Origin: an uncultured Methanosarcinaceae archaeon
Lineage (GTDB): Archaea; Halobacteriota; Methanosarcinia; Methanosarcinales; Methanosarcinaceae
Length of the DNA stretch: 64,000 bases
Assembly (NCBI GenBank): GCA_963727895.1
Contig: CAVSHT010000009.1
Span: forward strand, 160,001-224,000
Reading direction: 5' to 3'
Position numbers and translations under genes: made by a program. Below are positions 1-31,017 of the stretch, piece by piece. How positions within the stretch are numbered: position 1 is the first letter of the stretch; each line of letters begins with the position of its first letter. The notes beneath the pieces were generated by a model. The model saw nothing but the letters and a program-made list of their open reading frames with translations, had not been told where the DNA came from and searched no databases.

Positions 1-364
1 CCCTATTAGAGCTTCTACTGTAACCTCTTATGATTTTATAGAAATAAGTATCAATAATAGTTCAACAGTCAATAAGCCTTTTTTGGATGAGTTCTATCAG
101 CTTATTGACTCTGAAGCAAACAGTACAGGTATTAGTAATGTCCCTGTAGTGTTCGTGCGTGAAAAGAATCTAACTCTTGCAGATTTTAAAACATCAGATT
201 CAACTAACAATACTTCAAATTCCACTAATGAAAGTATTTCGAACATAAACAATTCGAGTGAAAATAAATAAAGTACATCAAGTAAAGTGAGCTCAACTCC
301 TGATTTTGAGTTATTGGGAAGCTTGATTTGCCTTTACGGTGGTTGGAAGTTCAGGAAGAACTAA
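1..364 (+). pseudogene. 3' part of a cell-surface protein with PGF-CTERM-like sorting signal, interrupted by in-frame TAA at 269-271
   Basis: Frame open from base 2; Ser/Thr/Asn-rich linker; after TAA the same frame continues STSSKVSSTPDFELLGSLICLYGGWKFRKN*. Confidence 0.65.
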
Positions 365-406
365 TGGAAGCAGATAAGTGAGCTACTGCAACTAATTAGC
401 CGTTGC

Positions 407-592
407 TTGTTGTCTTTTGTACGCGAAGTGCTTAACTACTTCACCTTATATTTTGAAAACTGTGCAAGAAAGAATAGAAAGAAAAAACTTGCATTTGAAC
501 GCGCTGAAAAAGTTAAGCTAGAAAAGGAGCACCTTGAGAGAGAACGTGAAGAAAAAAGTAAGCAGAAAAACAAAAACGAAACTAATATATAA
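407..592 (+). CDS. small charged hypothetical protein (uncertain)
   Basis: 61 aa ORF, Lys/Glu-rich C-terminus, no clear start or RBS. Confidence 0.3.
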   Translation: MLSFVREVLNYFTLYFENCARKNRKKKLAFERAEKVKLEKEHLEREREEKSKQKNKNETNI

Positions 593-1042
593 TATTTCAT
601 GTGATGTAAAAATGGGTTTATGTAGGTTTAGAGGAGGAAATAATTCCTCCTCGTCTTTCGCTAGCACTATCGTTTTTTAATCTCTAGAGTTAAGTACCTA
701 ATATGTCCCGTTTTTGGTATTATAGTGGGTTTAACTTAGTCTTTAGGCGGTGTTGTTTTAAAGCTCGTTCAAAAGAACGTAACTTTAGTCGCAGGTTATT
801 ATAATATAATATTTATACTTAATTATATTTGATTAATTTATATATAAATAGTTTTGTTATATTAACCCCATGCTGATTTTGCAGATTTCAGCAAATCAAA
901 CTATAATTTGTAGTCAACATTTTGATTTTACTGTTATTAAGCGGAATTTTCCTCAAGATCTGAAGCGTTTAACTGGATCATAGATAATCAACTTGCGAGA
1001 ATAAACTAACTATAAATATATTTTAATTATATATAACAGATT

Positions 1043-1077
<35 letters not shown>

Positions 1078-1331
1078 TTCAGTTTTATTATATACTTCAG
1101 AGGTTTTTGTGCGTCCCTGCGTAGTTGATTTCTAGAATCCCAAACATATTAAAATCCTGACACATCATTTCTAATGACGCACCACCTCACATATAATTGG
1201 TCATTTTGAAATTTTCAAGATTAGGCAGAAAATAACCGATCTCGATTTTTTAGAGAAATGTATCCAAAGTCCTCTGAGATCTAAACTGGACTGTAACGAT
1301 TATTGTGAAAAGTAATTGGGGTATTAAAGTT

Positions 1332-1469
1332 ATGAATGAAAATGACTCCAAATGCAATAAAAAATCTAATTACGAAGAGAATGACCTGCTCGCCTTTGCG
1401 TTACTGGCTCTGCTTGTCTTATTTGCACTCAAATACATTATTTATCCCGATATTGTCGTTTGTCTATAA
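1332..1469 (+). CDS. small single-TM membrane protein (45 aa)
   Basis: MNENDSKCNKKSNYEENDLLAFALLALLVLFALKYIIYPDIVVCL; G-rich stretch upstream; below ORF-track cutoff. Confidence 0.5.
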   Translation: MNENDSKCNKKSNYEENDLLAFALLALLVLFALKYIIYPDIVVCL

Positions 1470-1994
1470 GTCAACAAATTGTTAATTCATTGAATATACA
1501 GTCAAACGTCTAATTACTGTATATACAGCGTAAAAACAGGACGATTAATCAAAAAGTGTTCGACAAAATACCACTAATCACTCGTTTTTGGGTATTATAG
1601 TGGGTTTAAAAAGATATTAGATATTGGTTGTACATACAATCAAAAATGCGTTTTTTCGCTATTGTTATATACGGACAGGGGGGGTAAAACAAAAGTATCC
1701 CCAAATTTATTGGAACTCATTTTTAGCTTATTTTACTGCTGATAGTTCTTTTAGTTTTAGAAAGTCTATTTATAAGAAAGTCTATTTATATTAAGAAACT
1801 GTTATTCTTCGCCTATTGTATAAATATAATTTTATATAAAATTATACATGCATGAGACTCTCTATTTCTGCTAAGCATGTGTGATCAATTAGAGTAAGTG
1901 AAAAAATTTGTTAGAGGATAATAATCCGACTAAAAAACTCACCTATACAAAAGAGAAAAATATAAAATTTATACAATAAATGGAGGAAAATACA

Positions 1995-2105
1995 ATGTTT
2001 GGAAATGGATTATTTAGAAGAGGAAGATTTGGTTTTGGTGGCTGTGACGGCGGCTTCGGTGGCTGTGGTGGCTTCGGTGGCTTCGGTGACTGTGGTGACT
2101 GTTAA
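1995..2105 (+). CDS. 36-aa Gly/Phe/Cys-rich peptide
   Basis: GGAGG RBS at 1982-1986; MFGNGLFRRGRFGFGGCDGGFGGCGGFGGFGDCGDC*; GC-rich against AT background. Confidence 0.7.
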   Translation: MFGNGLFRRGRFGFGGCDGGFGGCGGFGGFGDCGDC

Positions 2106-2354
2106 GAACAGTTGCAAGATCAGTGGCTCACAAGATTTGTAAACTATCCTGTTCTACATGAATCCGCAAAAATTGTATGTAATCTACTGAAAACAACAGC
2201 CTAAATAGGATCCCTTATTTTGAGGGATCTCTAAAACAGCTAAAAACTCCTACTTTTTTGAAGTTCATTTTTAAAATAGTCAATTGAGCTTCTGGGGAAA
2301 GTAATTCTAGAACTCTTCTTAATAATAGGAATATAGGCTGGTTTTGGGACAGGC

Positions 2355-2758
2355 TCATTGGTTGGATGGATATTTGACAGCTAGAGCCTTTATTATACCC
2401 AGTATTAACAACAACGTCGATAGGCCTAAAATAAATTGATAATCAAATCTTTGGGCATATACCCCTGCTGCGATTTCACGCATGACTATTAAAATCGTAG
2501 CATCGGTTACATATGCAATTTTGATTTCTTCATGTTCACGAAAATCAGCAAAAGTCTTGAAAAGATCAATAAGAACAAAAACTGTGAGGACACCAGATAC
2601 TATCTGACCTAAACCGCCTCCAAGAGTCCCGAATAAAATTGATTTGACATTCATGAGGAGACTTATTACTCCCCCGAATAGCGCCAGTAGCAGTATATAT
2701 AGGATGATAATAGTGACTAAATCAATTACAATTTTAAATATTTTTTTTGATCTATCAT
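2355..2758 (-). pseudogene. PsiE-like (phosphate-starvation-inducible) membrane protein, frameshift in A8 run near 5' end
   Basis: LTVFVLIDLFKTF..YVTDATILIVMREI motif; N-terminal TM lies upstream of 2654, linked to ATG 2758 only by +1 in the T-run 2741-2748. Confidence 0.7.
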
Positions 2759-3262
2759 AAGTATTTTATAATGAATGTTCACTTTTAACCTCCCGATAAA
2801 AAGGTTAGGGCAATTCTCCACTGTAATAAAAACCCGTCTAGTGATGTTGATTTTGAGTTATCAAATACATATAATTGCCAATCCATGTCAAACTGAAAAA
2901 CACAATGAATAGGCAACAATTAAAGAAAAGGGACTAAAGAAAAGGAACTCACAAAAAATTCCCCATTAAATCTTAAATAAAATAGCTAGTGATATTGTTT
3001 TTCTTAGGCTATAGTTACAATTTATGATTTATTAAATCCGATTTTCCGCACATGCACACATTTAAGATAATTAAATAAGATTTATGCGTTTGAGCTGAGA
3101 AATAATAGCATTAAACCTTTAACTGTCGATATTTGATACAACATACGAAACTTTTGCTTATGGGGATTTAATCAGTTCATTTTCCAAATATAATATTCGT
3201 GAAATTATATTTATATATTTTACGTTTAGAAAATAAAAGCTTTTTCAGTTTTCAAATGATTA

Positions 3263-3463
3263 TAACCCGAATTTGACAGAAACATAAATATTATGATGAA
3301 TAAATCAGCCACATGCTTATGTTTTTTCTCTACAACTGTAATTTATATACTACGTTCTTTGATTTTTGATATTTTCATTTTTCCAAAAAATTCTATGTCG
3401 ATGCAAAGTGTTTTTTGTAAGAACTCACTTTACAAATTAACAACTTCTGTCAAATTAAGGTTA
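3263..3463. mobile_element. MITE (~200 bp) with 19-bp terminal inverted repeats
   Basis: TAACCCGAATTTGACAGAA (3263-3281) vs TTCTGTCAAATTAAGGTTA (3445-3463), 17/19 match; terminal TA may be TSD. Confidence 0.75.
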
Positions 3464-3544
3464 AGAAAGAGAATTTCATAGTCTATTAGAATTTACAGAA
3501 TTTTCGAGACACTGCCAAATTACTGAAAATGCACTATAAAAATA

Positions 3545-4284
3545 GGAATTGTTACTTAACTATATCTAGTTATTTATTTCTGTATTTCATCAATAGAATA
3601 ACCGAGTACTTTAGCATTTCAAGACTCTTCGTATAACACTTTGTCTTTCTTCTCAACCTTGCCAGAAAGTGCCTCAATATGCTGTTATATCCTTCAACAG
3701 TATACGTTTTTGTTTTTGATTGAGTATGGATCTTTTCTGGAAGAAACTCTGCATATGCTCTCCAGTGATCTGTCATTACTTCTCCAATGTATTTTTTCTT
3801 CACTTTTTCCCAGAGTAGTTTTCCAGTTTCTGTTCCTCTGCTACCAAAAGAGCAGTTGATGAACTTTTTCCCAACTCTATCAACAGCAATCCAGATCCAG
3901 CAATATTTTTTTTGTTACCGATGTAAGTGTGCATCTCATCCATTTCAACAATAGATATCTCATTTTCGCTTTTTAGAGCCTCCAACTCCTTACCAAATTT
4001 CTTGATCCATTTTTGGACAGAAACATGACTCACCCCTAAAAACCGCCCTATTGAGTGAAAGCCCAATCCTTCAAGATAGAGTTGTAAAGCCTGTTTTTTG
4101 ACAGAAGTGGAAAAAGCAGTTGATTTTAGCTCTACTGTATAGTTATATCCACAATCATGGCATTTGTAGCGTTGACGACCACCAACTATACCATTCTTTT
4201 TGTGACTGGAACTATTGCATCTGGGGCAGTTCATGAAGAAATAGAGGTTCTCATAATAAATAACTATAGTTAATTAGCAAAGCC
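3545..4284 (-). mobile_element. IS1-family element, 740 bp, InsA 3800-4234 / InsB 3570-3803 with slippery A-run
   Basis: InsA Zn-finger CPRC..CHDC + HTH; InsB TDHW..Y..VEGYNS..RHFLARL; imperfect TIRs; 8-bp TSD TAAAAATA (3537-3544, 4285-4292). Confidence 0.95.
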
Positions 4285-4294
4285 TAAAAATATA

Positions 4295-4954
4295 GTGGAA
4301 AATGGCTTCAATTCCGCCTTTCCTGTAATCATTTGGAATAATGCCCTTATCGATGGGCATAATCGTTATCACATATGCCAAAAGCACAAAATTGAATTTG
4401 TATTTATCGAGCAGGACTTTGCTTCAAGATCTGCAGCTAAGATGTGGATTATTGAAAACCAACTTGGCAGGAGAAATATAAACAATATCATAAGAAATGA
4501 TTTGCTTGGTAGATGGTATAATGAAGATAAGAGGTCAAGAGGTAATCCTAACGGATTTGCTCAAATTAACCAATTCCGCAAAAATTGCGGAATTGGTGAT
4601 ACTGAGCCTGCAGACATAATAGTTAAACCTGCAGATATAATAGCTAAACAAGCAGGTGTAAGCTCAAGAACAGTAGAGTATGCAGCAAAGATAACAGAAG
4701 CAATAGACACAATCACTGCAAACACTGGAATTTCCAGAGCTACAATTCTGACTCGAAAAATCAATTACAAGCAGGAAGATTTAACAGACCTTGCAAAGCA
4801 TGACAAAGAATTTCAGCTCAGAGTAATGGAAAAAGTAAAATAAGACAGTGAAGACATTGGCTCTGCAATTATAAAAACTGAACGTGAAGACACTGCCAAA
4901 CAAATGGAAGAACTTGAAGCAAAAAGAAAGCAACTTCAAGATATAAAGAAGTAG
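4295..4954 (+). pseudogene. ParB/Srx-like N-terminal domain protein (viral/plasmid type), 5' end cut by IS1, internal TAA 4841-4843
   Basis: IIWNNALIDGHNRYHIC..WIIENQLGRRN motif, HTH (IAKQAGVSSRTV); frame resumes after TAA to TAG 4952-4954. Confidence 0.75.
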
Positions 4955-5457
4955 ATGGTAGGGTTTTAAGTCCCTATTCTCAAATCCCTACCTGCGATCC
5001 AACCCAAAGATTAAGAGGAAACCCTATTACTCTTAATCTACAAATTTATATTATCATGGTTATATATATCATAATTGATGTCAAAAATTGTGTCTAAGCA
5101 AAATATAATTTAATGTATTATATTTTAATGCCATTATATATTACAATATTATAAAATAATCATATAACATTAAAATTTTAAATTGAAAACGATTTTTGAT
5201 ATAATTTATTTAATATAGTTTATGCTATTAGTAGGTACCGGAGTTGGAAAACAAATGGGGTATTATGGGGTACCAATAAAATAAAAGAATCTCCTGGAGG
5301 TCGCTGATTCCTCTTCGAATTAATATATTTGGGGGAGCATAATATTTCGAAGAAACTGTATCGGGGGCAACAGTAAACACAGCACCTCCGGGCTTTCTTA
5401 CATTATATATTCTGAAAAATTATCCATTTAAATTTCAAAATTAAAGAGGTATTATTC

Positions 5458-5598
5458 ATGAAACATCTAAAAATATGCCCAAAATGTAATTCTAACCTGA
5501 AATTACATTCAGACGGTGTGACTCAGTATTGCAATGTTTGTAAGTACTGGACAAAAGCAGGTACTGCAAGACTTGACTCAATAATGATTTATGGATGA
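5458..5598 (+). CDS. small zinc-ribbon protein (46 aa)
   Basis: MKHLKICPKCNSNLKLHSDGVTQYCNVCKYW...; GAGG RBS upstream. Confidence 0.7.
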   Translation: MKHLKICPKCNSNLKLHSDGVTQYCNVCKYWTKAGTARLDSIMIYG

Positions 5599-5849
5599 AG
5601 AGCCTAAATGAAAAATACAAAAAATTTTTAAAATTTGGATCTATTCTCCTACATTTTTGCTTTCTGACAGTTTCTAACTTTTTATCCTTCAAGAATTAAC
5701 TACATGCAGGTAATAATAATCAGGTGGAATTTTCTGACTGTTTCAGCTGGCAGTGAGGCTGCTGTGAGGTTTGGAGTAAGCGCGTTCGTCTTCCATGAGA
5801 TATTTCATATTAATTACCCTCAAAAATTAAAAGAAGGGGAATGCACTAG

Positions 5850-5884
5850 GAAGCCACGAGGCCTTTAGCCTCGTGGTAGTTCAC
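5850..5884 (+). mobile_element. orphan IS200/IS605-type right end (hairpin + TAGTTCAC)
   Basis: GAAG-CCACGAGGC-CTTTA-GCCTCGTGG-TAGTTCAC, perfect 9-bp stem. Confidence 0.7.
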
Positions 5885-6042
5885 GAATTGCTGAACAATT
5901 CCATTAAACATACCTTTTTGGAAGATTCAAAAATAAGGATTTTCTATACCGTTGAATAAGCTTCAGCTTTTTAAACTAATACCATAATCTATGCATGTAT
6001 TGAAACTCATACAATATATTCAACACTACTAGGATTTTCACT

Positions 6043-6745
6043 GACGGTCATAACAGGTATGCTTTGTGCACTAAGAACAACATACCCTTTTAGGGTTGAG
6101 GCTAAAGAGTTTGAATCACGAAATGATGTTTGTATATGGATGCTCCAAAATCAATTCGTTCGACGTAATCTAGATAATTATACTAAAGGTAGTTTGAGCC
6201 TTATATTCGAGGAATATGTTGAGAAACAAGTTGCTGAACGAAAATCAAATGCTATTACACTGTCAAACAAATTACGCTCAGTAAAACTAGAAGAAAACTC
6301 AATTCCGCAGAAATCTGCGGAATTGGAGACTAAGCAGAGAAGAAGAGGAATCGAGACACGCGATGCTGTTGGTAAAGTTGCCGGTGGTCTCTCATGATAC
6401 AATCTACAAAGTAAAAGAAATCAAGTCTCAAACTCCTTCAGCGCTCCTTCCTGAATTGGAGCGTTTAATAATTCCACATGCAGTAAGCATAAATCAAGCT
6501 CATAAATTTGTCCGTGCAATAAAAGCAATTCAAGGAAAAGTACCTGACAAGGTCACAGTTGCAAATAAAATTCTTAATGAGTTCAATCAGAATCCTTCTG
6601 TTTCCCTTGAAAGTAAGACAAAAGACGTAATACGTGAAACTCAGCGTGCAGAAAGAGATAGACAGTTAAGAGAAGCTGAAGAAAAAAGAAAGCAGCTTGA
6701 AGAAGAAGCAAGGCTAAACCGTGAAAAAAGAAATCTCTTAGTTTC
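6043..6745 (+). pseudogene. second ParB-like paralog, 5'-truncated, two frameshifts
   Basis: DGHNRYALC at 6043, WMLQNQFVRRNL, HTH (VGKVAG-VSHDTIYKVK), coiled-coil EKRKQLEE matching paralog 1; shifts near 6088 and 6390. Confidence 0.7.
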
Positions 6746-6746
6746 T

Positions 6747-7073
6747 TTACCATTTCCAATATCCAAACCAACGTATATTTTTAGTGTTAGCCTCCTCTAA
6801 ATTACGAACAAAAAGATCAAATCCTTTTATAAAACATATTGAAGTAACAATTATATTAACTCTTAAATCATTTTCTACATACATCAACCCCATCGAAAAA
6901 TACCATATAGATTTAAATAAGTCAGTACTAAAATCTTTTTTCCATATGTATGCAAGAATTCTTATAATAATGAAAGCAACTGCAGAAAAAGGAATAAACG
7001 CAAAATCTAAATATTTTATAATGTTTCCAGCAAATAACAACCAAATAGAAAGATTCTCAAACATATTCACCAA
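6747..7073 (-). CDS. hypothetical membrane protein
   Basis: 108 aa, about three hydrophobic segments. Confidence 0.55.
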   Translation of the reverse strand: MVNMFENLSIWLLFAGNIIKYLDFAFIPFSAVAFIIIRILAYIWKKDFSTDLFKSIWYFSMGLMYVENDLRVNIIVTSICFIKGFDLFVRNLEEANTKNIRWFGYWKW

Positions 7074-7188
7074 AATTTATACAAAGGTTTTTCTAATAAA
7101 ACTTTGCTCTTTCCGATTTATTAAAAGTCAAGTTTTATGAATTTACTTTGGAATCTTAGTACTAGTATACCTTACATCACCATTTAAT

Positions 7189-7665
7189 TCATTCTTTTTC
7201 AGTTAAAACTTCACTTATCTCTTTTTCAATGTCTGATCCTTTTCCATTGATTTGAAACCTTATAAACTCTTTATTTCCTTTTTTAAGGCTCACCTTACCT
7301 TCAGCAAATATTTTAATGCTTATCGTACCATCTATTTTTACATATTTAAGAGAAGTTTTTAGATAGTGTTGCAGTACGTGGGTAGCATAAGGAGTAAGCA
7401 GTACAACATTATCCCAGAAAAAATGAGTTTCTTGTACAGATGCACTTATATAGCATCTACGAGACTCTTGAGAACTACAATAATAATTAACTGATATATC
7501 TGGAAATTCTTTGATGAAAGACTGTCTATTAAATTGGTTATTAAAGATTCCTTCTTCTTCCTTGTGGGCTGGGATAATTAGAATATCCGACTTAAAATAT
7601 TCATCAATATTCTCAAATTTACAATACCCTTCTAATAGTTCATCTCTTGATACTTTTTCTGTCAC
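7189..7665 (-). CDS. hypothetical protein
   Basis: 158 aa, GTG start with AGGAG RBS. Confidence 0.7.
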   Translation of the reverse strand: MTEKVSRDELLEGYCKFENIDEYFKSDILIIPAHKEEEGIFNNQFNRQSFIKEFPDISVNYYCSSQESRRCYISASVQETHFFWDNVVLLTPYATHVLQHYLKTSLKYVKIDGTISIKIFAEGKVSLKKGNKEFIRFQINGKGSDIEKEISEVLTEKE

Positions 7666-7784
7666 TGTTACTCCTTCTTAACTTTATTAAAATTGCAACT
7701 AAAAGATTTTAATAAACTGTTTTATAAAACACTACTAATTCCAAACATTTTGATTGAAATACTGATTTTGTATGAAAAAGCGAA

Positions 7785-7817
7785 AAACCCTGAGTTTTTA
7801 GCACCGTGGTAGTTCAC
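7785..7817 (+). mobile_element. degenerate IS200/IS605-type right end
   Basis: ...TTTAGCACCGTGGTAGTTCAC shares terminal CGTGGTAGTTCAC with 5850-5884. Confidence 0.5.
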
Positions 7818-7974
7818 AATTACATTACTAGATAAATATGTAAAAATATTTAAAATTATAGGAAGTGGGGTGAAAGTGTTCATGCTTGTGATCACGTTTA
7901 ACGTTCATTTAAAGAAAAAAACATAATTTTGGTAACTATAAACAGGCATTTATGACAATGGAATTAAAAATGGA

Positions 7975-8356
7975 AATCATGACAAATCGCATGACGAAGC
8001 CTTATTATCTGCAAATATACTATAAAAATTTAAGAATGGTAAAGAATAGGAATCATGATAAATCGCATTACAGAGCCTTTGTGCCGACCTTGTGCCAACT
8101 TTGTGCCGACCAAAAACATTAATGGTTCCGAGTGTGCCGACTTTGTTCTTTAAAACAATTTATAGTAGAAAAATTTTTTTCATAAATTAAATACACTGTG
8201 TGTGTCTTATAGAGAAGGGTTGTACAGAGGGGTTGGCACAAATGCGTTTTTCCGATACTTAAAGGCATGTTCCAACCCTAAAATTAGCTTTTTCGTAATG
8301 CACAGGCTTCTAGGTGGCAACTGTTGTCGGCACACCCGGCACAAAGTTGGCACAAA
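7975..8356. repeat. iteron-like repeat array, candidate replication origin
   Basis: 11-bp (T/C)TTGTGCC(G/A)AC x3 tandem 8078-8110 plus 8132; inverted copies at 8232, 8326, 8336, 8346; AT-rich spacer 8147-8195; separate 21-bp repeat at 7975 and 8051. Confidence 0.75.
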
Positions 8357-8446
8357 ACTGAAAAAAGGGATAATAGGTATAGTTAAAATAGAAACAAAGA
8401 AAAGGGTTTGTCAGGGCGATTCGCCGCCCCACAGTGAGTGATTTAA

Positions 8447-8704
8447 TTATTCTTGATTTCCGCCCTGAATTCCCTTCAAGGAACGGATTGCAAGAGCTAC
8501 GAATGTTACTAGGACGACTACACCTACGATATTAACACCATTATTCCAGACTGAAGCACCCGTTGTTGCATTTGCAAAGTCCCCAGATTTATTAACCGGC
8601 ATTGCCTGTGAAACTTTTTCACCAATACCCGGCCCTAAATAGAATATAATAACGAGCGTGAGAAGCCCAACACACATCCCTACAAGTTCGGTCATTGTAC
8701 TCAT
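8447..8704 (-). CDS. two-TM-helix protein, candidate spindle-shaped virus major capsid protein
   Basis: 85 aa; two hydrophobic helices, linker with NKS/NAT sequons, basic tail; AGGTGA RBS and TTTATATA box upstream. Confidence 0.6.
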   Translation of the reverse strand: MSTMTELVGMCVGLLTLVIIFYLGPGIGEKVSQAMPVNKSGDFANATTGASVWNNGVNIVGVVVLVTFVALAIRSLKGIQGGNQE

Positions 8705-8881
8705 CGTTTTTTCACCTACCTTAACTATATAATCTGTTTTCCCGAGTATATAAAGACATTTAAAAATAATAGTGTGCAGCAGGCTTTGTATGTGAGAATG
8801 GTATCAAAAAAATGAAAATTGAACCCTTCTAAGGCAATCGTTATTAGCAAACTTAAAAATAAGGTTAAAGGGTTTACCCCT

Positions 8882-9775
8882 TTATCCCAACATTGTCCCT
8901 AAACTACCTAAACGATTGTATATAGTTCGTTTTTTATTTATTTGACTAATTGACTTCTTTACGGGGATTTTCACCTCTTTCTTTTTCTTTTTCGCTGAAT
9001 TTTTCTCATCACCGTTTTTCCGCATCAGTAGATATGCTAAACTACTTTTTTGAGTATTAGCCATTCTTACCGAAGCGCTTTTATTGTTAACTGATCCCGT
9101 TGAGTTGCTTGCCCCTTTTGAACCTCTTGAATTCCCCTGCAGTGCAGCTGTGGAGAACTTAGGAAGTGTCAATACTGCTTTTGAAATTTGCTTTGATCCC
9201 TGTGAGCCTTGCTTACTACCGTTTCGATTTATACTGTTGTTAGAGTTTCCAGATTTTGAGTTTGGAGATGCAACAGTCTTTTTTTGTCGAAGACACAGTA
9301 ATTGAGCCCGATCCTAGCATAGTGCTTATATTTCCCAATTTATTGAATATGGTTCTATTTCTGTTTATTTCACTGCTAGTATGCTTCACATACTGCTGTG
9401 ATTTTTTCTTTTTGTTTGTATCTATTACGTCTTTACGCTTTTTTAGCATGTGTAGGAAGGCTATTGAGCTGTTTTTAGCTGAGTACTCCGGTAAGGATTG
9501 CCCGCTTTGTGAAGTTGTGCTTTTTTCTGTCACTGATTTTACACCCTGAGATATTTTTGGGATGTTTAAATTGCTTAATATTTTAGTAATACTTGAAACA
9601 TCCGATATCGTTTTAGGTGAAACTAGTGAGAGGCTTTTGCTTGACTTTGTTCCAGCGGACGCTGAGTTTAACTTTTTACCCGCAGTTGATGCTATTGCAC
9701 TCCTGCTAGATCCTGAACGTTTTACTGCCCCCTTTGAAGAACCTAGCATATTAGGTTGATATTGAGTTGCTTTTT
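8882..9775 (-). pseudogene. C-terminal part of giant Ser/Lys-rich protein (two basic repeat modules)
   Basis: ORFs 9240-9749 and 8882-9172 join via one frameshift in T-run 9279-9285. Confidence 0.65.
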
Positions 9776-10745
9776 TGATCCAAAATCATCACTATATCTC
9801 TTGTTCACGCTTTTCAATTGATGAAACACACAAAAAGAATGAACCACTTCAGGAAAGACGCTTTTTACAGCTCCAATGATTGCTTTATCTTCATCAGAAA
9901 CGATTTTTTGTATTTTGCCTTCTGGAAATCGGTTTTTTATTCGTAGGATAAGAGAAATTAGAGCTTCAATTGTTGGTAACCTGTCAGTTACCTCAAAATC
10001 CAAAATTACCTTTTCTTTTGTAGCGATAACGTAAACGGATTGATATCGCATCTTTTTCCATTTTTTTAATGTAATCTCTCGTCCTATCAGAGTCTCAAAC
10101 TTCTTTTTCCATCCTTTCTTGACCCGATCTCCATCAATATACAAAGTTCCATCAAAATCAGGATTTTGATATAAAAGTTCTTGCTTAGAAAATACAGATT
10201 GTTTTTGCTCATGCAACCATAATGAAGAGGCACAAGGAGCTCTGCCGCATATATCAGTCAAACCTTCTGTATATGTTTCGCCTACCCTACAGGAATTGTG
10301 AAGACTGCATCTGCTATCGTATCTGACAAGCATTTGTTTGTCATAGAACTCATCACTGTAATTTGCGGATCCAGAAACACCAACGATCTGATCATGAAAA
10401 TGCTTTTTACAAGTAGGACAAATCCAGTATGTAGTATTGCAAGTTATGGTGCCATAACTTGTGAGAATTGAACGAGTATAGTGAGAGTTCACATTTAATT
10501 TAGCGCCACAAAAATCACAATGAGTAGGAGATATTAAAGAGAACAGAGAATGAAAGCGATTTTCAACTAGCAATTTCGGCAAAGGAATTAATACATTGCC
10601 TTCAAGTATCGTTTTTACCATTGAATTCTCGATTGATTTATTTCCTCTTCCCATTAAAACGAATTTATCTCAATGAAATTAAAATTTTATTGTTTTGCAC
10701 GATTGAGAAAAAAGAGGTAGACCAGAAAATAATAAAAAGTCTCTA
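9743..10745 (-). mobile_element. truncated DDE transposase (IS256/ISH6/ISNCY-like), CDS 9743-10654
   Basis: Zn-finger CDFC..CPTC, LYIDG, IVSDEDKAIIGAVKSVFP..CVFH; C-terminus and right end missing; ends approximate. Confidence 0.8.
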
Positions 10746-13700
10746 ATCTAGAGACCTCATTTTCAGCATTTTGTGCAGCCCTGTCACGTAAAGATCCGTT
10801 TGGAGCAGTAGCAGCCGAACTGATTTCACCTGCATTACTAATAATTTCATCAAAACCTTTTTTATTCCCCTGATCTTCATAAATAAACTCTTTTTCTCCT
10901 TCGGTTGTCACTCCCACAAGTTTATTAAGTTCTGCTTTAGTCGGAAGTCTATCATTTGTCACAATGAACTCAGCAACTGGGGAATACGCTTTTGATTGTG
11001 TGTTATCTATTATGTTAGGATACTTTTCTGCTACCGCTTTTGTGTAACTTACCACATCTGCAGCTTTACCCGTGCCTTTAATTACTTTGTTCGATGTTCC
11101 GATCTCTACTAGGTCACGAACATCTTTCACCCTGCCTGCGTGAGCAACTTCCACAGACTTTCCACCTTTAAGGAAAGTACTTCCAGCATATTTACGGGCA
11201 GCCTGTTCCTGTAATTTCATTAATTTTACGCCGTCGACTTTCAGCGATTTCAACTCGCCAAAGTTGTAAGCGATACCTTCCTGTTTTTGCCATCCCTGCT
11301 TAAGCTAGTCTTGTGTTTCTGCTATGTCCAAGAGGCTTGACTTTGCGTTATGGTTAAAGACTTCAACTCCTTTTTCCCAGTTCCCATTTACTTTAAAGGC
11401 TATTTTAGGCTCATTGGTGCCTTTATTTTCTACTTTGAAATCCTTGCCTTCTGAAAACCCTTTTTTAGTGGCAGCTGTAGCAAATTTCTGTATATATGCT
11501 GTTGGATTATCAACGTAGATTTCGAGATCTCCGGGGGTACGAGTCAAGTATTTTTCCATTTGCAATTTCTGCGCATTGGAACCCGCAACTTGAATTTTAT
11601 AATCAGTTCCACCTTTTAGAGACCTAACTGCACTTTTTATGCCTGAATCTTTCCCGTATGACTGGATAGACTCTGTTAATGCCGCTCGCATTTTTGTAGG
11701 CACATCAGTACTTAGTATAGAGAATTTCTCAGGATTTACAACTGTATTTTTAGCATTGTAGGCAGCGGTTGCAACACGTTTACCGGCTGCATAATATGTT
11801 TTATCCGCGTCACTGAGTACATCGGATACATACCTATTCAGAATCTTTTCTCCTGTTTTATCGTAGGCCTGAACTGAGCATTCAACTTTTACCTGTTTAC
11901 TTGTTTTTCCCAGTTTATTCAGCTCATTTATCGCATCCACATTTATGTAAGATTTTAGAGTTTCAGCGTTTGGAGCAACGCGACCAAGATGCAACCCGCT
12001 TTTACTGTCAGATGAAACAGTATTTAAGAAAGTTGTACCTTGATGTAGATTTCTAGTGTTTCCGCTTGATCCCAGTGAGGTCTCTTTCAAATCACCCGAT
12101 TTTAGCCCGGGGGTTAATAAGTACGGGTTTTTTGTTTCAAAAGCTTCAGCACCTTTTCCGAAGGCTTTTAATCCTACAGCTAGGGAAGCCACAACATCTA
12201 AGTCTTTTTCAATGTCAGTAAACATGTTAGTGTATTTAGCTGACGATGCTATCATGTCTACGCCCATCACGGCACCCGGTGCAGCTCCAACTGCTTTGGC
12301 TGCATAAGGTACAATTGGCTATCTTAGCACTGCTTTCAGCAACTGGCTTCAAAGCTTTAAGCGTTGCAGCGGATAAACCAAGTTCTGCACCTTTTAAAGC
12401 GGCTCCGCCTATGGCAGACTCTGCAACAAGAACACCAACGTCAGCGGCTGCGTTCAATGGTTGATTTTTAGCATAGTTATACTTGTTTACCTCCCAGTTG
12501 CGAATAGCTGAAAGCCGTGAGTCACTGTCAACTGTTTTTTCCCACTTGTTCATTACACTGTTTCCTAGTGCTTTTCTTAACGCTGAGTTTCCAGCTGTTT
12601 GAACTGTGCTTACATTAGGGATATATTTTGATACTGCTTTATTTGAAGCATCTACTGCAGCAGCGGCCCTTTTATAGCTAAAAGTATCTATAAATTTTGT
12701 ATTTAGCTTTGCGGAGGCTGCTCCAAGTCCGCCATTTTTAATCTCAGCATTATACAGAGCTAAATCAGCCGCTGCTTGTATTTCGGCTGCTTTCTGAGCG
12801 ACTGTTTTAAACGATTGAAGATCTGTAAATGTTGCTTTTTCACCTGTAAGGGTGGAATATCCATTTTTCGCCGTTGCGGTCATCGGGGATACTACTCCGT
12901 AGTTTAGCAACTTTGCAGTAGCCTGCTTTTCCTTTTCCTCCTGAGCCTGCTTTACTTTTTGAATTGCTCCATACTGTGATGCCGTCTTTGAAACTGCTGT
13001 AAGCTTACCGGTTTTATCGGTTCTTAGTACTCTTACCTCTGATTCTCCTGTGCTTGCAGCTCCGTTTGTTTGAATCTGGTGTATAACCCTGTTATTTTTG
13101 CCCACAACGTCTTTAAAAGCCGCATTTAGCTTTTTTGCTGTTTCTGCTTCGATTTTTGCTGCTGCTACTGCCGCAGTGTACCCCGCATTTGAAGTAGCAG
13201 CTTTTGCTCTACCACCTACGGTGGCACCTGTCAGGTATTGTTGAGTTGTAGTTTTTCCCTTTGCAATCATTGCCTTATAGTCGGCTAAATTTTGAGATTT
13301 TTCCGCAACGGAGGAACCATATATTGTTTTAGCAACCTTTGAGTTAGGATTTGAGGCCCCATTTTATTCAATATCAGCTGTCCTGATTAAGGGAGAGGAT
13401 TCCTTTATCACACTAGCATGATTGGAAGTAACTTGTTTCGCTAGTTTGTTCAGATTCTCAGAAGTGGCTTTTGCAGTCGAACAGGTACCAGCCTGCAATT
13501 TCTTTGCTTGTGCAGATATGACTTTGGGAGCTACAGCTTTAACCGCCTGTGTCGTTGCGGTTAATTTTGTTGCGAGTTTTGCAGTAGCAGTTGAGATAAT
13601 TTTTGCGGGTGCTGTTTTTGAAGCTGCAACTGAACCTGAGGTTGCAACTCCCTTGGAGTAGTTTGAACTTTTCGTGTTAGAAGGATTGTTTATATTGTTT

Positions 13701-15055
13701 GCAACATGTGAGACAACCCCCTTTGATTCTAAAGCGGAGCTCTGGGCAAGTTCTTTTTGTATGTCTGCAATCTGTCCCTCTGCCTTAGCATTAGCTGCAT
13801 TGCGAGCAGCTGTAACTGAGGCACTTTCTTTAGCAGCGTCCTCTAGATACACAGGCGGAGACTGTGTATTGGCAGGAGCTTCATAATACCATTTTATATA
13901 TGCAGGGTTGTAATGTTTGCCTGTGTTGTTTGAGGCTTCTCTTGCATTCCACTTGTTGAGTGTCTGCTGTTCTTGAGAATTGAGACTTCCAGAATAATAA
14001 TTTGAAGTTGTAGTATTTGCAGCTGCTGCACTCGCTGCTTTTACTGATTGTGCTTTTACAGTAGCGGTATATGCTTTTTCAATTGCAGTACTATAGGAAT
14101 CTATAGCGGACTGTGCTTCTTTCTGCGTTTTGTATGTGGTTGTTTTAGGCGCAGTTGCAGACACTCCATAAGCCTTTGCAGTCGCTGATAAGGATTTCAC
14201 AGAACTTGATATGTCGTATGTTGTAGTAGTGGTTGCAGTTGCAACTTTAGTAGAGACAGACCCCCCGCTCGAAGAGGTAGTTTTTGCAGAACTACTTGCG
14301 TTTGAGCTTAGTTTTTTATTAACCTCAGTTGTATAACTATCAATTATACTTTGAGCTTTCTTTGAGTCTGTAATTGTTGAGCCATAGATTTTAGGCTTGG
14401 ACACACTTAAACCAGCTGCTACAGCCTGTTTGTAAACACTTGCGAGAGCGGAATCTACGTCATAATACGAAGCGGTCTTAGCTGCCGCTGAAGCTGTGAC
14501 ATTTTTAGCCGCTGTTGCTGCCTTACTAGACTGACTAGATTGACTAGGTTGGCTGGCTTGTGAGGTTGTGGTATATTTTGCAGCAATTAGCTCATTTGCC
14601 TTTGAAACATACGAGTCGACTATGCCTTGAGCTACAGAAGCACTTTTTATGGATTTGCCATAAGAAGCCGGAATGGTTAAACTAACACCATATGCAGCAG
14701 CCTGTGCTTTAATAGATGCAAGTGCAGAATCAATATCATAATATGTATCAGAAACTGTAGATCCAGTACCACGTACTGCAGTGTGATTACTTGTTACATT
14801 TGAAGTTAATTTACTTTTTGATGTTAATGCAGCACTTTTTACAGCGTTTACAACAGTCTGTTTTTTTGCTGAAACTACTGAAGATGAGGACGAGGCAGTT
14901 GTAGATGATGTATTAGCGGCAAGCCGGGCATCGTTGGCAGCTTTAGCCTTTTGAACTTCAGCACCATTTGAACCGGTTACCACTTGAAGCGAGCCGTCTG
15001 CTGCTGTATATTTTAGAATAACCCCGCCACTTGGAGTTGAGCCATAAATTAACAT
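10746..15055 (-). pseudogene. N-terminal ~1430 codons of giant Ala/Ser/Thr/Lys-rich protein, in four ORF fragments
   Basis: 13364-15055 joins 12236-13270 across in-frame TAA; frameshift near 12315 into the 11305-12270 frame; in-frame TAG 11305-11307 joins 10687-11253. Confidence 0.75.
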
Positions 15056-15107: not shown

Positions 15108-15392
15108 TTAAGCTTTCGTTACACGAACAGTTGCAGAAGGCAGCTGGGATTGTAAGTGTTGCTTTACAGCAGCAGCAGGCACATCAAGATTTTTTAAATA
15201 TGTAATTTTATGAGATATTACATACCCCTGCTGTGTTTTAACCGTTGCACCGAAAGTCCCTTTTTGAACCTTGGTTTTAATACGTTTTTTAGCAGCGGAG
15301 GCCTCTGCGAGAGACACAAAGGGGCCGAACTTCTGTTCAACAACTATACGTAATTTTTTAGAGGACGTTTTTTTCATTACCATGGTTGCCAT
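15108..15392 (-). CDS. basic hypothetical protein with SPOR-like GPFxSxAEA motif
   Basis: 94 aa, KFGPFVSLAEASAAKKRI. Confidence 0.65.
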   Translation of the reverse strand: MATMVMKKTSSKKLRIVVEQKFGPFVSLAEASAAKKRIKTKVQKGTFGATVKTQQGYVISHKITYLKNLDVPAAAVKQHLQSQLPSATVRVTKA

Positions 15393-15602: not shown

Positions 15603-16101
15603 TTATAATCTGGATTTCCATGGCGCAATGAGACAGGGGGTATAGGCGGAGCCTACCTTTAGGTCTACACGCTTGTCTGATTCTGTGCAATCGATGTAGA
15701 TTCTACCACGGTCTGTTGTGTCGAAGGCATTGCAGGCGTGACCAAAACCGCGACCAAGAGTGACTGCAACGAATCCGCAGGTTATAACCCGCAGCTTCTG
15801 CATGATTGTGTAGCATTTCGGCATAATCGGCACATTGAAACGAACTATTGTACAACATTTGATCTGTCGTGTCATTATCGACAAAATTGATTACCTGTTC
15901 ATAAGTAACGTATGTTGCATTTGGATTTTCAGTTAGGTTAATGTGGTGTCCATCTGCACCTAAATAATCCAACTTATGTACGTTGGCACTGTCTGAGGGG
16001 AAGAGATATGCGAAAGTTAACATTACTGCAAATACAGCAAATACAGCAAATGCAGCAAAAAAGCCTAAAATACAGACTTCTAGAATATCTTTAAAACCCA
16101 T
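15603..16101 (-). pseudogene. membrane-anchored papain/transglutaminase-like Cys protease, frameshift near 15785
   Basis: N-terminal TM; FQCADYAEMLHNHAEAAG then other frame GHACNAFDTTDRGRIYIDCT (Cys-His-Asp). Confidence 0.65.
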
Positions 16102-20199: not shown

Positions 20200-20800
20200 T
20201 CATAATTTTGAGCGCCCCCTCACCCTGACAGCCTTTTTTGTATTACTCTGTTCCTCCAAAGCTTGCATTTCCAATGGTGCTAACATTAATTTTTGGGTCT
20301 CTACAATTATTCCCAGTAAGTCTATTTTCCCCTTTAAAACCTCAATTTCATCTCGTTCAACTGATAAATGTGCCGCTTCTGCCCGCAAAATATCATTTTC
20401 ATTTTTAATATCTTTATATGCTGCACCCTCTGACACATCAAGTTCTTTTTGGATAGTGAGATAAGGTACAAATTTTTTATAATACTCCTTCAATCCATCA
20501 ACATCCGCTTGATAATAATGGTTTTGTGTAGCAGGCAAAGAGTGCCCCATAAACTCTTCGGCATGGAAAAAGTCACATCCGGCGTTCAACATAGCTGAAT
20601 TAAAATACTTCCGCATGGTATGAGATCGGATTAAACCATAATTTCCCTTCTGAGTTTTCTTACTCGCTTTTGCTGCTAGATCTTTAAAAAGTTGAATAAA
20701 ACCAAATCGGTTAAATACACGCTCTTTTTCGTCAAAAGTATTTAAAAAAGTACTTGCAACCTTGCGGCGACAAAAAAGATAACTTGAGTCGTCATAAATA
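20200..20800 (-). pseudogene. C-terminal half of tyrosine recombinase/integrase
   Basis: IRSHTMRKYFNS (HxxR), EEFMGH, NHYY, C-terminal coiled coil; frame closed upstream of ~20800. Confidence 0.85.
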
Positions 20801-28293: not shown

Positions 28294-28366
28294 TAGTCCT
28301 GAGCGGATTCGAACCGCTGTCCCGGGCTCCAAAGGCCCGAAGGATTGACCACTACCCTACAGGACT
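28294..28366 (-). tRNA. tRNA-Gln(TTG)
   Basis: AGTCCTG acceptor stem, CGGGC-CT-TTG-GA-GCCCG anticodon arm, GGTTCGAATCC T-arm; no encoded CCA. Confidence 0.97.
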
Positions 28367-30277: not shown

Positions 30278-31017
30278 GGTATTGTTACTTAAATATATCT
30301 ATGTCTTTATTTCTTTATTTCATCAATAGAATAACCGAGTACTTTAGCATTTCAAGACTCTTCGTATAACACTTTGTCTTTCTTCTCAATCTTGCTAGAA
30401 AATGCCTCAATATGCTGTTATATCCCTCAACTGTAAATGTTTCTGCTTTTGATTGAGTATGACTCTTTTCTGGAAGAAACTCTGCATATGCTCTCCAGTG
30501 ATCTGTCATCACTTCTCCAATCTCTTTTTTCTTCAATTTTTCCCAGAGTAGTTTTCCAGTTCCCGTTCCTCTACCACCAAAAGAGCAGTTGATGAACTTT
30601 TTCCCAACTCTATCAATAGCAATCCAGATCCAGCAATATTTTTTTTGTTACCGATGTAAGTGTGCATCTCATCCATTTCAACAATAGATATCTCATTTTC
30701 ACTTTTTAGGTCCTCTAACTCCTGACCAAATTTCTTTATCCATTTTTGGACAGAAACATGACTTACCCCTAAAACTCTTCCTATTGAACGAAAGCCTAAT
30801 CCTTCAAGATAGAGTTGTAAAGCCTGTCTTTTTACAGAAGCGGAAAAAGCAGTTGATTTTAGCTCTACTGTATAGTTATATCCACAATCAGAGCATTTGT
30901 ACCGTTGACGCCCACCAACTATACCGTTCTTTTTGTGACTGGAACTATTGCATCTGGGGCAGTTCATGAAGAAATACACTTTCTAATAGTATATAACTAT
31001 GTTTAAGTATCAATGCC
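30278..31017 (-). mobile_element. IS1-family element, 740 bp; InsB ends at early TAA
   Basis: InsA 30533-30967, InsB 30315-30536; TIRs GGTATTGTTACTTAAA / TTTAAGTATCAATGCC; no perfect TSD. Confidence 0.93.

Follow-up and report, generated by a model that had tools for sequence, protein, structure and literature searches.

What does a short, intact gene encode when the mobile element around it has fallen to pieces? The question is raised by a 258-nucleotide (nt) gene at positions 8447-8704, minus strand, of a 64,000-nt stretch (the window) of contig CAVSHT010000009.1 (positions 160,001 to 224,000; assembly GCA_963727895.1) from an uncultured Methanosarcinaceae archaeon. The gene starts with ATG and encodes 85 amino acids (aa), and its product had been put forward in an initial annotation as the major capsid protein (MCP) of a spindle-shaped virus. 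Spindle-shaped viruses are, to our knowledge, unique to archaea. The capsid proteins of SSV1 and His1 are glycosylated or lipid-modified, are inserted into membranes and form a helical lattice. Homology searches usually fail for spindle coat proteins because these are very short and hydrophobic. Sequence comparison suggests that the 85-aa protein is a distant member of the spindle-virus MCP kind, nearest to the His1 type and invisible to databases. We consider it fairly likely that its gene comes from a virus of a Methanosarcina-like archaeon, integrated and now defective, and specifies a subunit of the coat-protein type. Homology is suggested by a moderate but well-controlled profile similarity and by a hallmark ATPase in relatives; a lattice-forming coat function and a spindle-shaped virion would follow by analogy.

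8447..8704, minus strand: intact gene for the 85-aa two-helix membrane protein (open reading frame, family, hhalign comparison to His1-type MCPs with controls, hairpin model)

A Kyte-Doolittle scan places the hydrophobic segments of the protein, which offers few tryptic sites, at residues 3-19 and 55-71. The AlphaFold2 model, built on a 14-sequence alignment and reaching a mean predicted local distance difference test score of only 67, has helices at residues 3-34 and 50-81 with a loop at 35-49. N-x-S/T sequons occur at N38 (NKS), which is kept in 9/9 close relatives, and at N45 (NAT), which is lost in two of the nine. The open reading frame (ORF), its two hydrophobic helices and the polar linker with both sequons are as the initial annotation had described them: the sequence is identical to the one quoted there, and hydropathy and AlphaFold2 agree.

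The protein belongs to a family. A word-indexed search gave 12 candidates, nine of which, the window's own protein included, form a close family with 64-100% identity; the eight close relatives are 64-87% identical to the window protein, P0002 and P0003 among them at 82-87%. None of the nine has a Pfam domain or an informative name. Invariant among them are Y-x-G-P-G-x-G, P-x-N, G-D-F-A-N, T-G-A, W and L-K-G-I-Q. Together with five more distant genome-derived copies they make up alignment A2 (14 sequences), and an exhaustive A2 profile search of 1.84 billion protein representatives returned 113 cluster representatives at E <= 1e-3, 13 at E <= 1e-10 and one at E <= 1e-30. Eight relatives at 64-87% identity and 113 representatives at E <= 1e-3 indicate a real conserved family, beyond chance. 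Most of the 113 are 80-125 aa long and align over their whole length. Many are extended at the N-terminus by 20-70 aa, and about ten members of about 200 aa carry an insert of about 110 aa between helix 1 and the conserved S-x-W-N-x-[ST] motif. This insert is rich in Thr, Ser and Gly in P0050, P0069, P0070, P0082, P0086, P0105, P0106, P0114 and P0116. A sequon in the loop is present in 90 of 96 two-transmembrane (two-TM) family members and in 27 of 28 His1-type proteins.

The link to the His1-type capsid proteins comes from comparison of profiles. Using hhalign, we aligned 97 family members (A3) and a 26-sequence family core (A6) with 28 His1-type capsid proteins (A4, one of them from Methanosarcinaceae genome G043) and with 52 fusellovirus VP1/VP3 proteins (A5). 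The comparison of A3 with A4 gives Prob 70.3% and E 4e-5 over 58 columns, and that of A6 with A4 gives Prob 88.1% and E 3e-6 over 64 of 74 columns. The positive control, A4 against A5, consists of accepted relatives and gives Prob 66.3% and E 5.5e-5 over 56 columns. Aligned with A4, both A3 and A6 match at the conserved Pro that follows helix 1, at S-x-W-N (the motif reads SSWNS in VP21) and at the second of the conserved Trp residues. Control scores were computed on match columns with a local hhalign, which reproduced the original values, and both permutation and reversal preserve composition and topology. The A3-A4 score of 27.8 compares with 16.6-17.7 for reversed profiles and is reached by 0/200 region-wise column permutations (mean 14.5, standard deviation 3.3, maximum 26.3). 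For A6-A4 the score is 32.5 against 21.3 reversed, again with 0/200 permutations reaching it (mean 14.5, standard deviation 3.1, maximum 24.2). The A4-A5 control pair scores 27.5 against 13.6-13.9 reversed, and 0/100 permutations come up to the real score.

Searches starting from single proteins point in the same direction. The window protein alone ranks second against the His1-type profile among 136 small two-TM ORFs of its own genome, with a score of 18.5 over 61 columns. The ORF at rank one has 18.6 over only 21 columns, and none of the other seven top rows listed aligns over more than 24 columns. Every ORF of 50-250 aa in His1, SSV1, LSV-48N and HRPV-1 was also scanned against the family profile. 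Among 33 ORFs of His1, VP21 is at the top (33.9, Prob 90.7%, 62 columns) and the next has 19.2; a separate hhalign comparison of the family profile with VP21 gives 73.1%. Among 39 ORFs of SSV1, VP1 (24.4, 15 columns) and VP3 (18.3, 9 columns) take ranks one and two, weakly. The top ORF of the 90 in LSV-48N is CDS0020 (28.3, Prob 56.9%, 41 columns), and none of the 19 ORFs of the pleolipovirus HRPV-1 scores above 17.0. A six-frame hidden Markov model (HMM) scan of the four virus records finds only VP21 (E 0.0096, 10 bits) and CDS0020 (E 0.002, 12.7 bits).

The second line of evidence is the gene context of the relatives. Among genomic relatives with context L001, a contig of Methanosarcina sp. 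UBA289, is the closest. Its gene order is a 1987-aa Ala/Lys/Ser-rich ORF, the capsid-like gene, an IS200/IS605 insertion, three small genes and a 312-aa P-loop ATPase. The order of capsid-like gene, several small genes and ATPase recurs in L018, L051 and L050, and L019 is a compact form with a full integrase and a 527-aa protein bearing a helix-turn-helix (HTH). Phrog_5484 is matched over its full length by the ATPases of L001, L018 and L019 (8.4e-12, 8.3e-11 and 1.4e-13), and SSV1 B251 (5.2e-101) and His1 ORF16 (2.8e-62) belong to the same PHROG family. When the L001 ATPase was compared by tblastn with 50,697 phage records, the sole match was Haloferax virus LSV-48N (28% identity, E 4e-12). 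The element ATPase is 26% identical to SSV1 B251 in BLASTP (E 8e-6). A tblastn search with the L051 ATPase found an ATPase in five of nine loci of Methanosarcina-type elements, the window being one of the nine and LSV-48N a tenth target; the ATPases of L050 and L051 were detected by tblastn. In L017 (a complete genome of another genus) and L052 (another family) the gene is paired with a superfamily 1 helicase and a primase-like protein. L017 and L018 also encode 700-aa Ala/Lys-rich proteins and spike-like proteins of 760-830 aa, the latter combining GLUG and CarboxypepD_reg domains with a signal peptide and with membrane segments at the C-terminus. In L018 (G074:C33:149000-168999) the capsid-like gene and ATPase module lie between two sets of genes, each for a ~700-aa Ala/Lys-rich, a ~140-aa and a ~780-aa spike-like protein; the sets may be tandem elements or a duplicated structural module.

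Distribution of the gene agrees with this context. Twelve of 177 genomes of the taxonomic family match at E <= 1e-3, seven with full-length copies (one of them broken) and five with short, spurious ones. In a phylum-wide sample 6 of 401 genomes match at E <= 1e-5, spread over four families. All full-length copies whose flanks were read (L001, L011, L017, L018, L019, L051 and L052) stand beside element genes, with integrases, primases and helicases adjoining. Patchy distribution together with such neighbours is the behaviour of a mobile element.

Some candidate relatives were rejected. Extra 'copies' at G000:C12:148599-148670, G000:C11:52864-52947 and L012-L016 are matches of 24-30 aa that cover helix 2 and the L-K-G-I tail and recur in several Methanosarcina genomes. 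The two inspected (own genome and G111) overlap, in another reading frame, the 3' end of a conserved TPR-like gene, and for this reason the short copies are regarded as spurious. A bacterial match in Zhongshania (L002, 26% identity) is probably due to chance. A scan of IMG/VR with the close-family alignment found no relative, and tblastn of the 85-aa protein against the phage records gave nothing at E <= 10. In a PDB sequence search with the family profile SSV19 VP1 (7xdi) was not matched at E <= 10; the matches there were designed repeat proteins only, which sum weak repeats and were discarded as spurious. A literature search, with subscription journals outside its coverage, found no description of the family in Methanosarcina proviruses.

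Libraries of known families say little about the protein itself. It has no Pfam match at E <= 0.1 and matches 0 PHROG families at E <= 10. The Pfam capsid models work on their own kind: SSV1 VP3 matches PF06281 at 1.8e-38 and His1 VP21 matches PF25665 at 1.5e-37. Pfam and PHROG capsid models are weak even between accepted relatives, as SSV1 VP1 matches the His1 model at E 0.053 and His1 VP21 matches the SSV1 VP1 PHROG at only E 0.029. Among the 113 relatives one has a sub-threshold match to PF06281 (18.2 bits, cut-off 25 bits) and one to Pilin_N, PF07790 (20.8 bits, cut-off 25.2 bits), and above threshold no further family is seen more than once. In the Pfam, PHROG and relative searches the best matches are not to pilins, holins or cellular membrane proteins, the outcome that the initial annotation had named as speaking against a capsid protein. 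In the ESM Atlas feature search 30/30 nearest clusters are unnamed, and the top three score 0.92-0.93 and are 80-90% viral. The nearest Pfam-bearing clusters there are PF06281 'putative VP1-like protein' (0.85) and PF25665 'His1 virus capsid protein domain' (0.84), scores below 0.9 being leads only according to the tool.

Several results weigh against reading the protein as a spindle-virus MCP. First, both capsid models, PF25665 His1_capsid (cut-off 27 bits) and PF06281 VP1_VP3, miss the window protein and two relatives at E <= 10. None of the 113 relatives reaches either cut-off or matches PF25665 at E <= 0.01, and over the 177 genomes neither model matches a locus of this gene; the only matches above cut-off there are true His1-type genes of genome G043. 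Second, hhalign probabilities of 70-90% are below the level usually accepted as proof, and the HMM-to-sequence cross scores are only 10-16 bits. Third, the SSV1 side of the comparison fails. A3 against A5 gives Prob 32.8% and E 4.6e-4 over 22 columns of helix 1 only, A3-A5 scores 18.2 against 19.6 reversed and A6-A5 scores 14.6 against 17.5 reversed, and the window protein ranks 34/136 against the SSV profile. As these scores are not above those of reversed profiles, no link to SSV1 proteins is detectable. Fourth, the modelled fold is a generic hairpin with no specific structural match: the best Foldseek E value is 5.8 in the PDB and 1.5 in BFVD, and a wide VIA-align search has a centrosomal coiled coil on top (Z 8.8) and 627 chains at Z >= 5, so that fold searches are uninformative either way. 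Finally, tblastn with the L051 ATPase finds no ATPase in 20 kilobases (kb) of the L017 element, and tblastn with the relatives' proteins finds none in the window, where the downstream module is missing. Neither His1 nor SSV1 has a counterpart of the giant Ala/Lys-rich protein or of the GLUG-motif spike-like protein, and virions have so far been observed for none of the family's elements. A search for RNA data found none; the only DNA data sets that it listed share 7-10% of words.

Capsid homology, as originally proposed for the SSV1 and His1 proteins together, is upheld in part. As remote homology and in gene context it stands for the His1-type MCPs, profile to profile and as strong as the relation between His1 and SSV1, and it has no support for SSV1 VP1. 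In terms of the His1-type proteins, the PF25665 HMM cut-off is not reached, profile-profile similarity is above controls, and the size, two-helix and sequon layout is present. Since formal Pfam membership failed, we file the protein as one that works like, and is probably related to, the PF25665 proteins, and not as a Pfam member.

An unlikely reading, yet one that deserves discussion, is that the gene encodes a membrane or envelope protein of the element, for instance the internal membrane protein that a plasmid-vesicle or a pleomorphic, vesicle-like virus would have, and that its likeness to VP21 is convergence. The failure of the Pfam capsid models, the missing SSV1 signal and the L017 element without ATPase would all suit such a protein, and the 760-830-aa GLUG/CarboxypepD_reg proteins of L017 and L018 resemble envelope spikes. 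The pleolipovirus comparison runs the other way: the A3 profile against HRPV-1 VP3 gives Prob 0.2%, no HRPV-1 ORF exceeds 17, and the pleolipovirus ATPase VP8 belongs to phrog_1979, not phrog_5484. Convergence is also difficult to combine with controls that keep composition and topology and never reach the real score, and with an alignment that pairs the conserved Pro and both conserved Trp residues.

It is less probable still that we deal with an accessory small membrane protein for holin-like lysis or superinfection exclusion. Size and two-TM layout suit many such proteins, as do the gene's apparent own promoter-like and terminator-like signals. No PHROG match, holin and exclusion families included, was found at E <= 10, although this test is weak because the library holds few archaeal-virus lysis proteins. 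Also against an accessory protein are the conserved position of the gene in a module leading to a B251-type ATPase, the long conserved loop with its sequon in 90/96 members and the specific similarity to VP21. An ordinary membrane protein of the cell or a protein like the type IV pilins of archaea, merely beside mobile DNA, for which the one sub-threshold Pilin_N match is the only hint, is very improbable given the patchy occurrence (7 full-length copies in 177 genomes of the taxonomic family, 6/401 in the phylum), the element genes adjoining all seven full-length copies with flanks read, two hydrophobic helices instead of one, the absence of a Pilin_N match in the window protein and the spurious nature of the short extra 'copies' in its own genome and G111, which are out of frame over a TPR-like gene.

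Returning to the coat-protein reading, it is useful to compare the family with known systems. It resembles His1 VP21 (PF25665, Halspiviridae) in a length of about 75-85 aa, a helix 1 closed by a conserved Pro with an amphipathic stretch after it, a polar loop that bears a sequon and S-x-W-N (in the window's subgroup the motif is GDF), another conserved Trp ahead of helix 2 and a basic C-terminal tail; L001, L018 and L019 also have an ATPase of the same PHROG as His1. It differs from VP21 in a loop that is about 8-11 residues longer, and the PF25665 HMM misses the family. Unlike His1, which is linear and has a type B polymerase, the elements are integrated and carry tyrosine recombinases and primase/helicase or Rep-like genes, and no protein-primed polymerase was found among the element ORFs scanned. 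Bona fide His1_capsid genes are present in another Methanosarcinaceae genus at L023 (G043:C1:8556-10786), where a 79-aa protein matches at 7.7e-22. Beside it is a 161-aa protein whose ends are capsid-helix-like, with an insert of about 90 aa between. A second His1_capsid gene set of G043 is on contig C13.

With SSV1 VP1/VP3 (PF06281, Fuselloviridae; SSV19 VP1 structure 7xdi) the family shares size and the two-helix hairpin layout. Like SSV1, the element is integrated, in keeping with a temperate lifestyle, and the ATPase of its relatives is in the PHROG of SSV1 B251. SSV19 is known for a multi-start helical lattice. The N-terminal extensions of 20-70 aa in some members recall SSV1 VP1, a 144-aa ORF extending upstream of the capsid domain. 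It is the lack of a sequence signal above reversed controls, and of a PF06281 match, that sets the family apart. From pleolipovirus HRPV-1 it differs in having no VP3 similarity and, in its elements, ATPases of phrog_5484 as against VP8 of phrog_1979.

LSV-48N, which is placed with Tebi-SV1 in the proposed family Almyrocitroviridae, has the matching ATPase. Both viruses have haloarchaeal hosts, unlike the window element. CDS0020 of LSV-48N, 166 aa long, is the sole match of the family profile in that genome and adjoins the LSV-48N ATPase. The match is weak (12.7 bits; Prob 56.9% over 41 columns), and the protein has an N-terminal extension of about 75 aa. It lies at L020 (LSV-48N, PP151251) 12785-13285, minus strand, with a two-TM C-terminal half, beside the ATPase operon. 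The authors state that no ORF of LSV-48N resembles a known capsid protein (PMC12714723). The supplement lists, for supernatant proteomics, a 166-aa protein with 2 peptides and an intensity-based absolute quantification (iBAQ) value of 5.2e6 (PMC12714723); by length this entry agrees with CDS0020. CDS0020 may be the capsid protein that the LSV-48N authors did not identify. For Tebi-SV1, a two-TM protein of about 17.5 kDa, VP35, is proposed as capsid protein by the authors (PMC13612827).

Metagenomes have previously yielded predicted spindle-shaped viruses of Methanosarcina, including contig C1697 with a protein-primed polymerase and a capsid protein that matches SSV1 at 94.9% in HHpred (PMC9796341). 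Methanosarcina spindle-shaped virus 1, accession PQ167755, has a circular genome with two capsid-gene copies and is placed in Eurekaviridae (PMC12451623). The present elements share the predicted host genus with both, and the capsid proteins of both are reported to be similar to those of known spindle viruses. C1697 differs, by its description, in matching SSV1, while the present family matches the His1 type.

By analogy with the known spindle viruses, the hairpin protein would be embedded in the cell membrane, its polar and probably N-glycosylated loop facing outward, and as the virion buds many copies would lie next to one another in the helical lattice of its shell. Intact relatives have the gene behind large structural or adhesin-like genes, and the morphogenesis/replication ATPase of the B251/ORF16 family comes downstream, after a few small genes. 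The element in the window is dead, and its capsid gene is most likely a still-intact relic. A broader idea, which we regard as possible and put forward only tentatively, is that the family is a large capsid-protein clade unseen by databases (113 clusters at 50% identity, no Pfam model) that unites integrated viruses of Methanosarcinaceae and other Halobacteriota with LSV-48N, Tebi-SV1 and His1, CDS0020 being the missing capsid protein of LSV-48N. If this is true, the methanogen elements would form a new spindle-type virus family with a ~2000-aa Ala/Lys-rich repeat protein and GLUG-motif spikes. The family profile would make it possible to recognise and count proviruses of methanogens and other archaea and would give the LSV-48N group a candidate capsid gene. 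It would also point to complete genomes G086 and G354 for possible induction of a methanogen spindle-type virus. For the window itself the significance is modest: an intact relic gene in a dead provirus.

The state of the element can be seen from the following features.

8882..15055, minus strand: collinear fragments of the giant Ala/Lys/Ser-rich gene, which is intact in L001 (tblastn collinearity and ORF phases)
13364-15055, 12236-13270, 11305-12270, 10687-11253, 9240-9749 and 8882-9172, minus strand: pieces of the giant gene (ORF list)
9743..10654, minus strand: transposase gene (PF10551) inserted in the giant gene (domain match)
15108..15392, minus strand: gene for a 94-aa basic protein between the giant gene and the 158-aa homolog (ORF list; no family match)
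15636..15993, minus strand: frameshifted homolog of the L001 158-aa protein (two tblastn pieces in different frames, 44% and 51% identity)
20344..20790, minus strand: C-terminal 149 aa of a tyrosine recombinase (integrase) (PF00589 positions 94-169 of 172, 31.6 bits)

In tblastn the pieces are collinear with the L001 ORF: 13364-15055 with its residues 130-407, 12236-13270 with 773-817, and 11305-12270 plus 10687-11253 with 1095-1471. The first two pieces are separated by an in-frame stop, the third is preceded by a frameshift and its block holds another in-frame stop, and the two C-terminal pieces show further frame changes. The integrase fragment is 45% identical to the 451-aa integrase of L019 and likely marks the end of the element; host genes follow from about 21014 onward. 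Decay of the neighbours had been claimed before, and it is evident in a giant gene cut by stops, a frameshift and an insertion sequence (IS), in the frameshifted 158-aa homolog and in the truncated integrase. It is important to note that the L001 ORF is only 34-40% identical and that the window genome is an 84%-complete draft in 19 contigs, so that divergence between lineages or faulty assembly could account for some of the frame changes. Neither of these explains the IS insertion or the absent module.

The accompanying hint that the intactness of the capsid-like gene is meaningful does not hold. About five lesions in about 5.2 kb next door, roughly one per kb, correspond to about 0.25 expected in 258 nt, and the chance of the gene being intact is then ~0.78, or about four times in five. 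Intactness would therefore be no sign of selection or domestication, and selective retention was rejected as unsupported. With the giant gene broken, the ATPase module gone and the integrase truncated, the capsid gene is most likely an intact relic and not a working or domesticated gene.

The gene has its own putative expression signals, read from the letters of the minus strand; the hairpin was in addition put to a fold test.

8712..8716, minus strand: GGTGA, Shine-Dalgarno-like site of presumed function, 7 nt 5' of the ATG
8747..8754, minus strand: TTTATATA, TATA-box-like element, 43-50 nt 5' of the ATG
8726..8732, minus strand: TTATATA, second TATA-like element, 22-28 nt 5' of the ATG
8385..8429, minus strand: terminator-like 5-bp GC hairpin (8429-8425 / 8418-8414) followed by a U-rich tract (8403-8385)

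Both the GGTGA ribosome-binding site and the TATA box of the initial annotation are found there, as candidates. The hairpin 3' of the stop codon has a fold z of -2.17, and since 5/200 shuffles fold as well as the real sequence at this z of -2.2, it supports termination weakly.

A few observations concern the neighbourhood of the gene. The giant ORF, at L001 3835-9798 (window 8882-15055), has no family match and contains several repeats of about 75 aa (Y-[YF]-D-V-D-[KS]..L..[IL].KQA...GVSL.KP.SYG). A motif like F-H-R-N-I-[KR]-N-T-L-G occurs in it twice, internally and at the C-terminus, and similar motifs end the 169-aa and 96-aa fragments of the window and the ~700-aa proteins of L017 and L018. 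The transposase at 9743-10654 (minus strand) is 303 aa long and includes the end of a MULE domain. The counterpart of 15108-15392 in L001, by position only, is a small 99-aa gene. Window positions 1-8400 occupy the place of the relatives' small-gene and ATPase module; this region has a GC content of 0.31-0.34, low coding density and weak family matches, with ParB-like hints at 4295-4843 and a split IS1-type pair at 3570-4234 (minus strand) in which one part has HTH/zinc-ribbon and the other is a DDE_Tnp_IS1 fragment. HTH_23 occurs in a second copy at 30533-30979 (minus strand), and a tRNA-Gln gene (anticodon TTG) lies at 28294-28366 (minus strand), about 7.5 kb beyond the integrase fragment.

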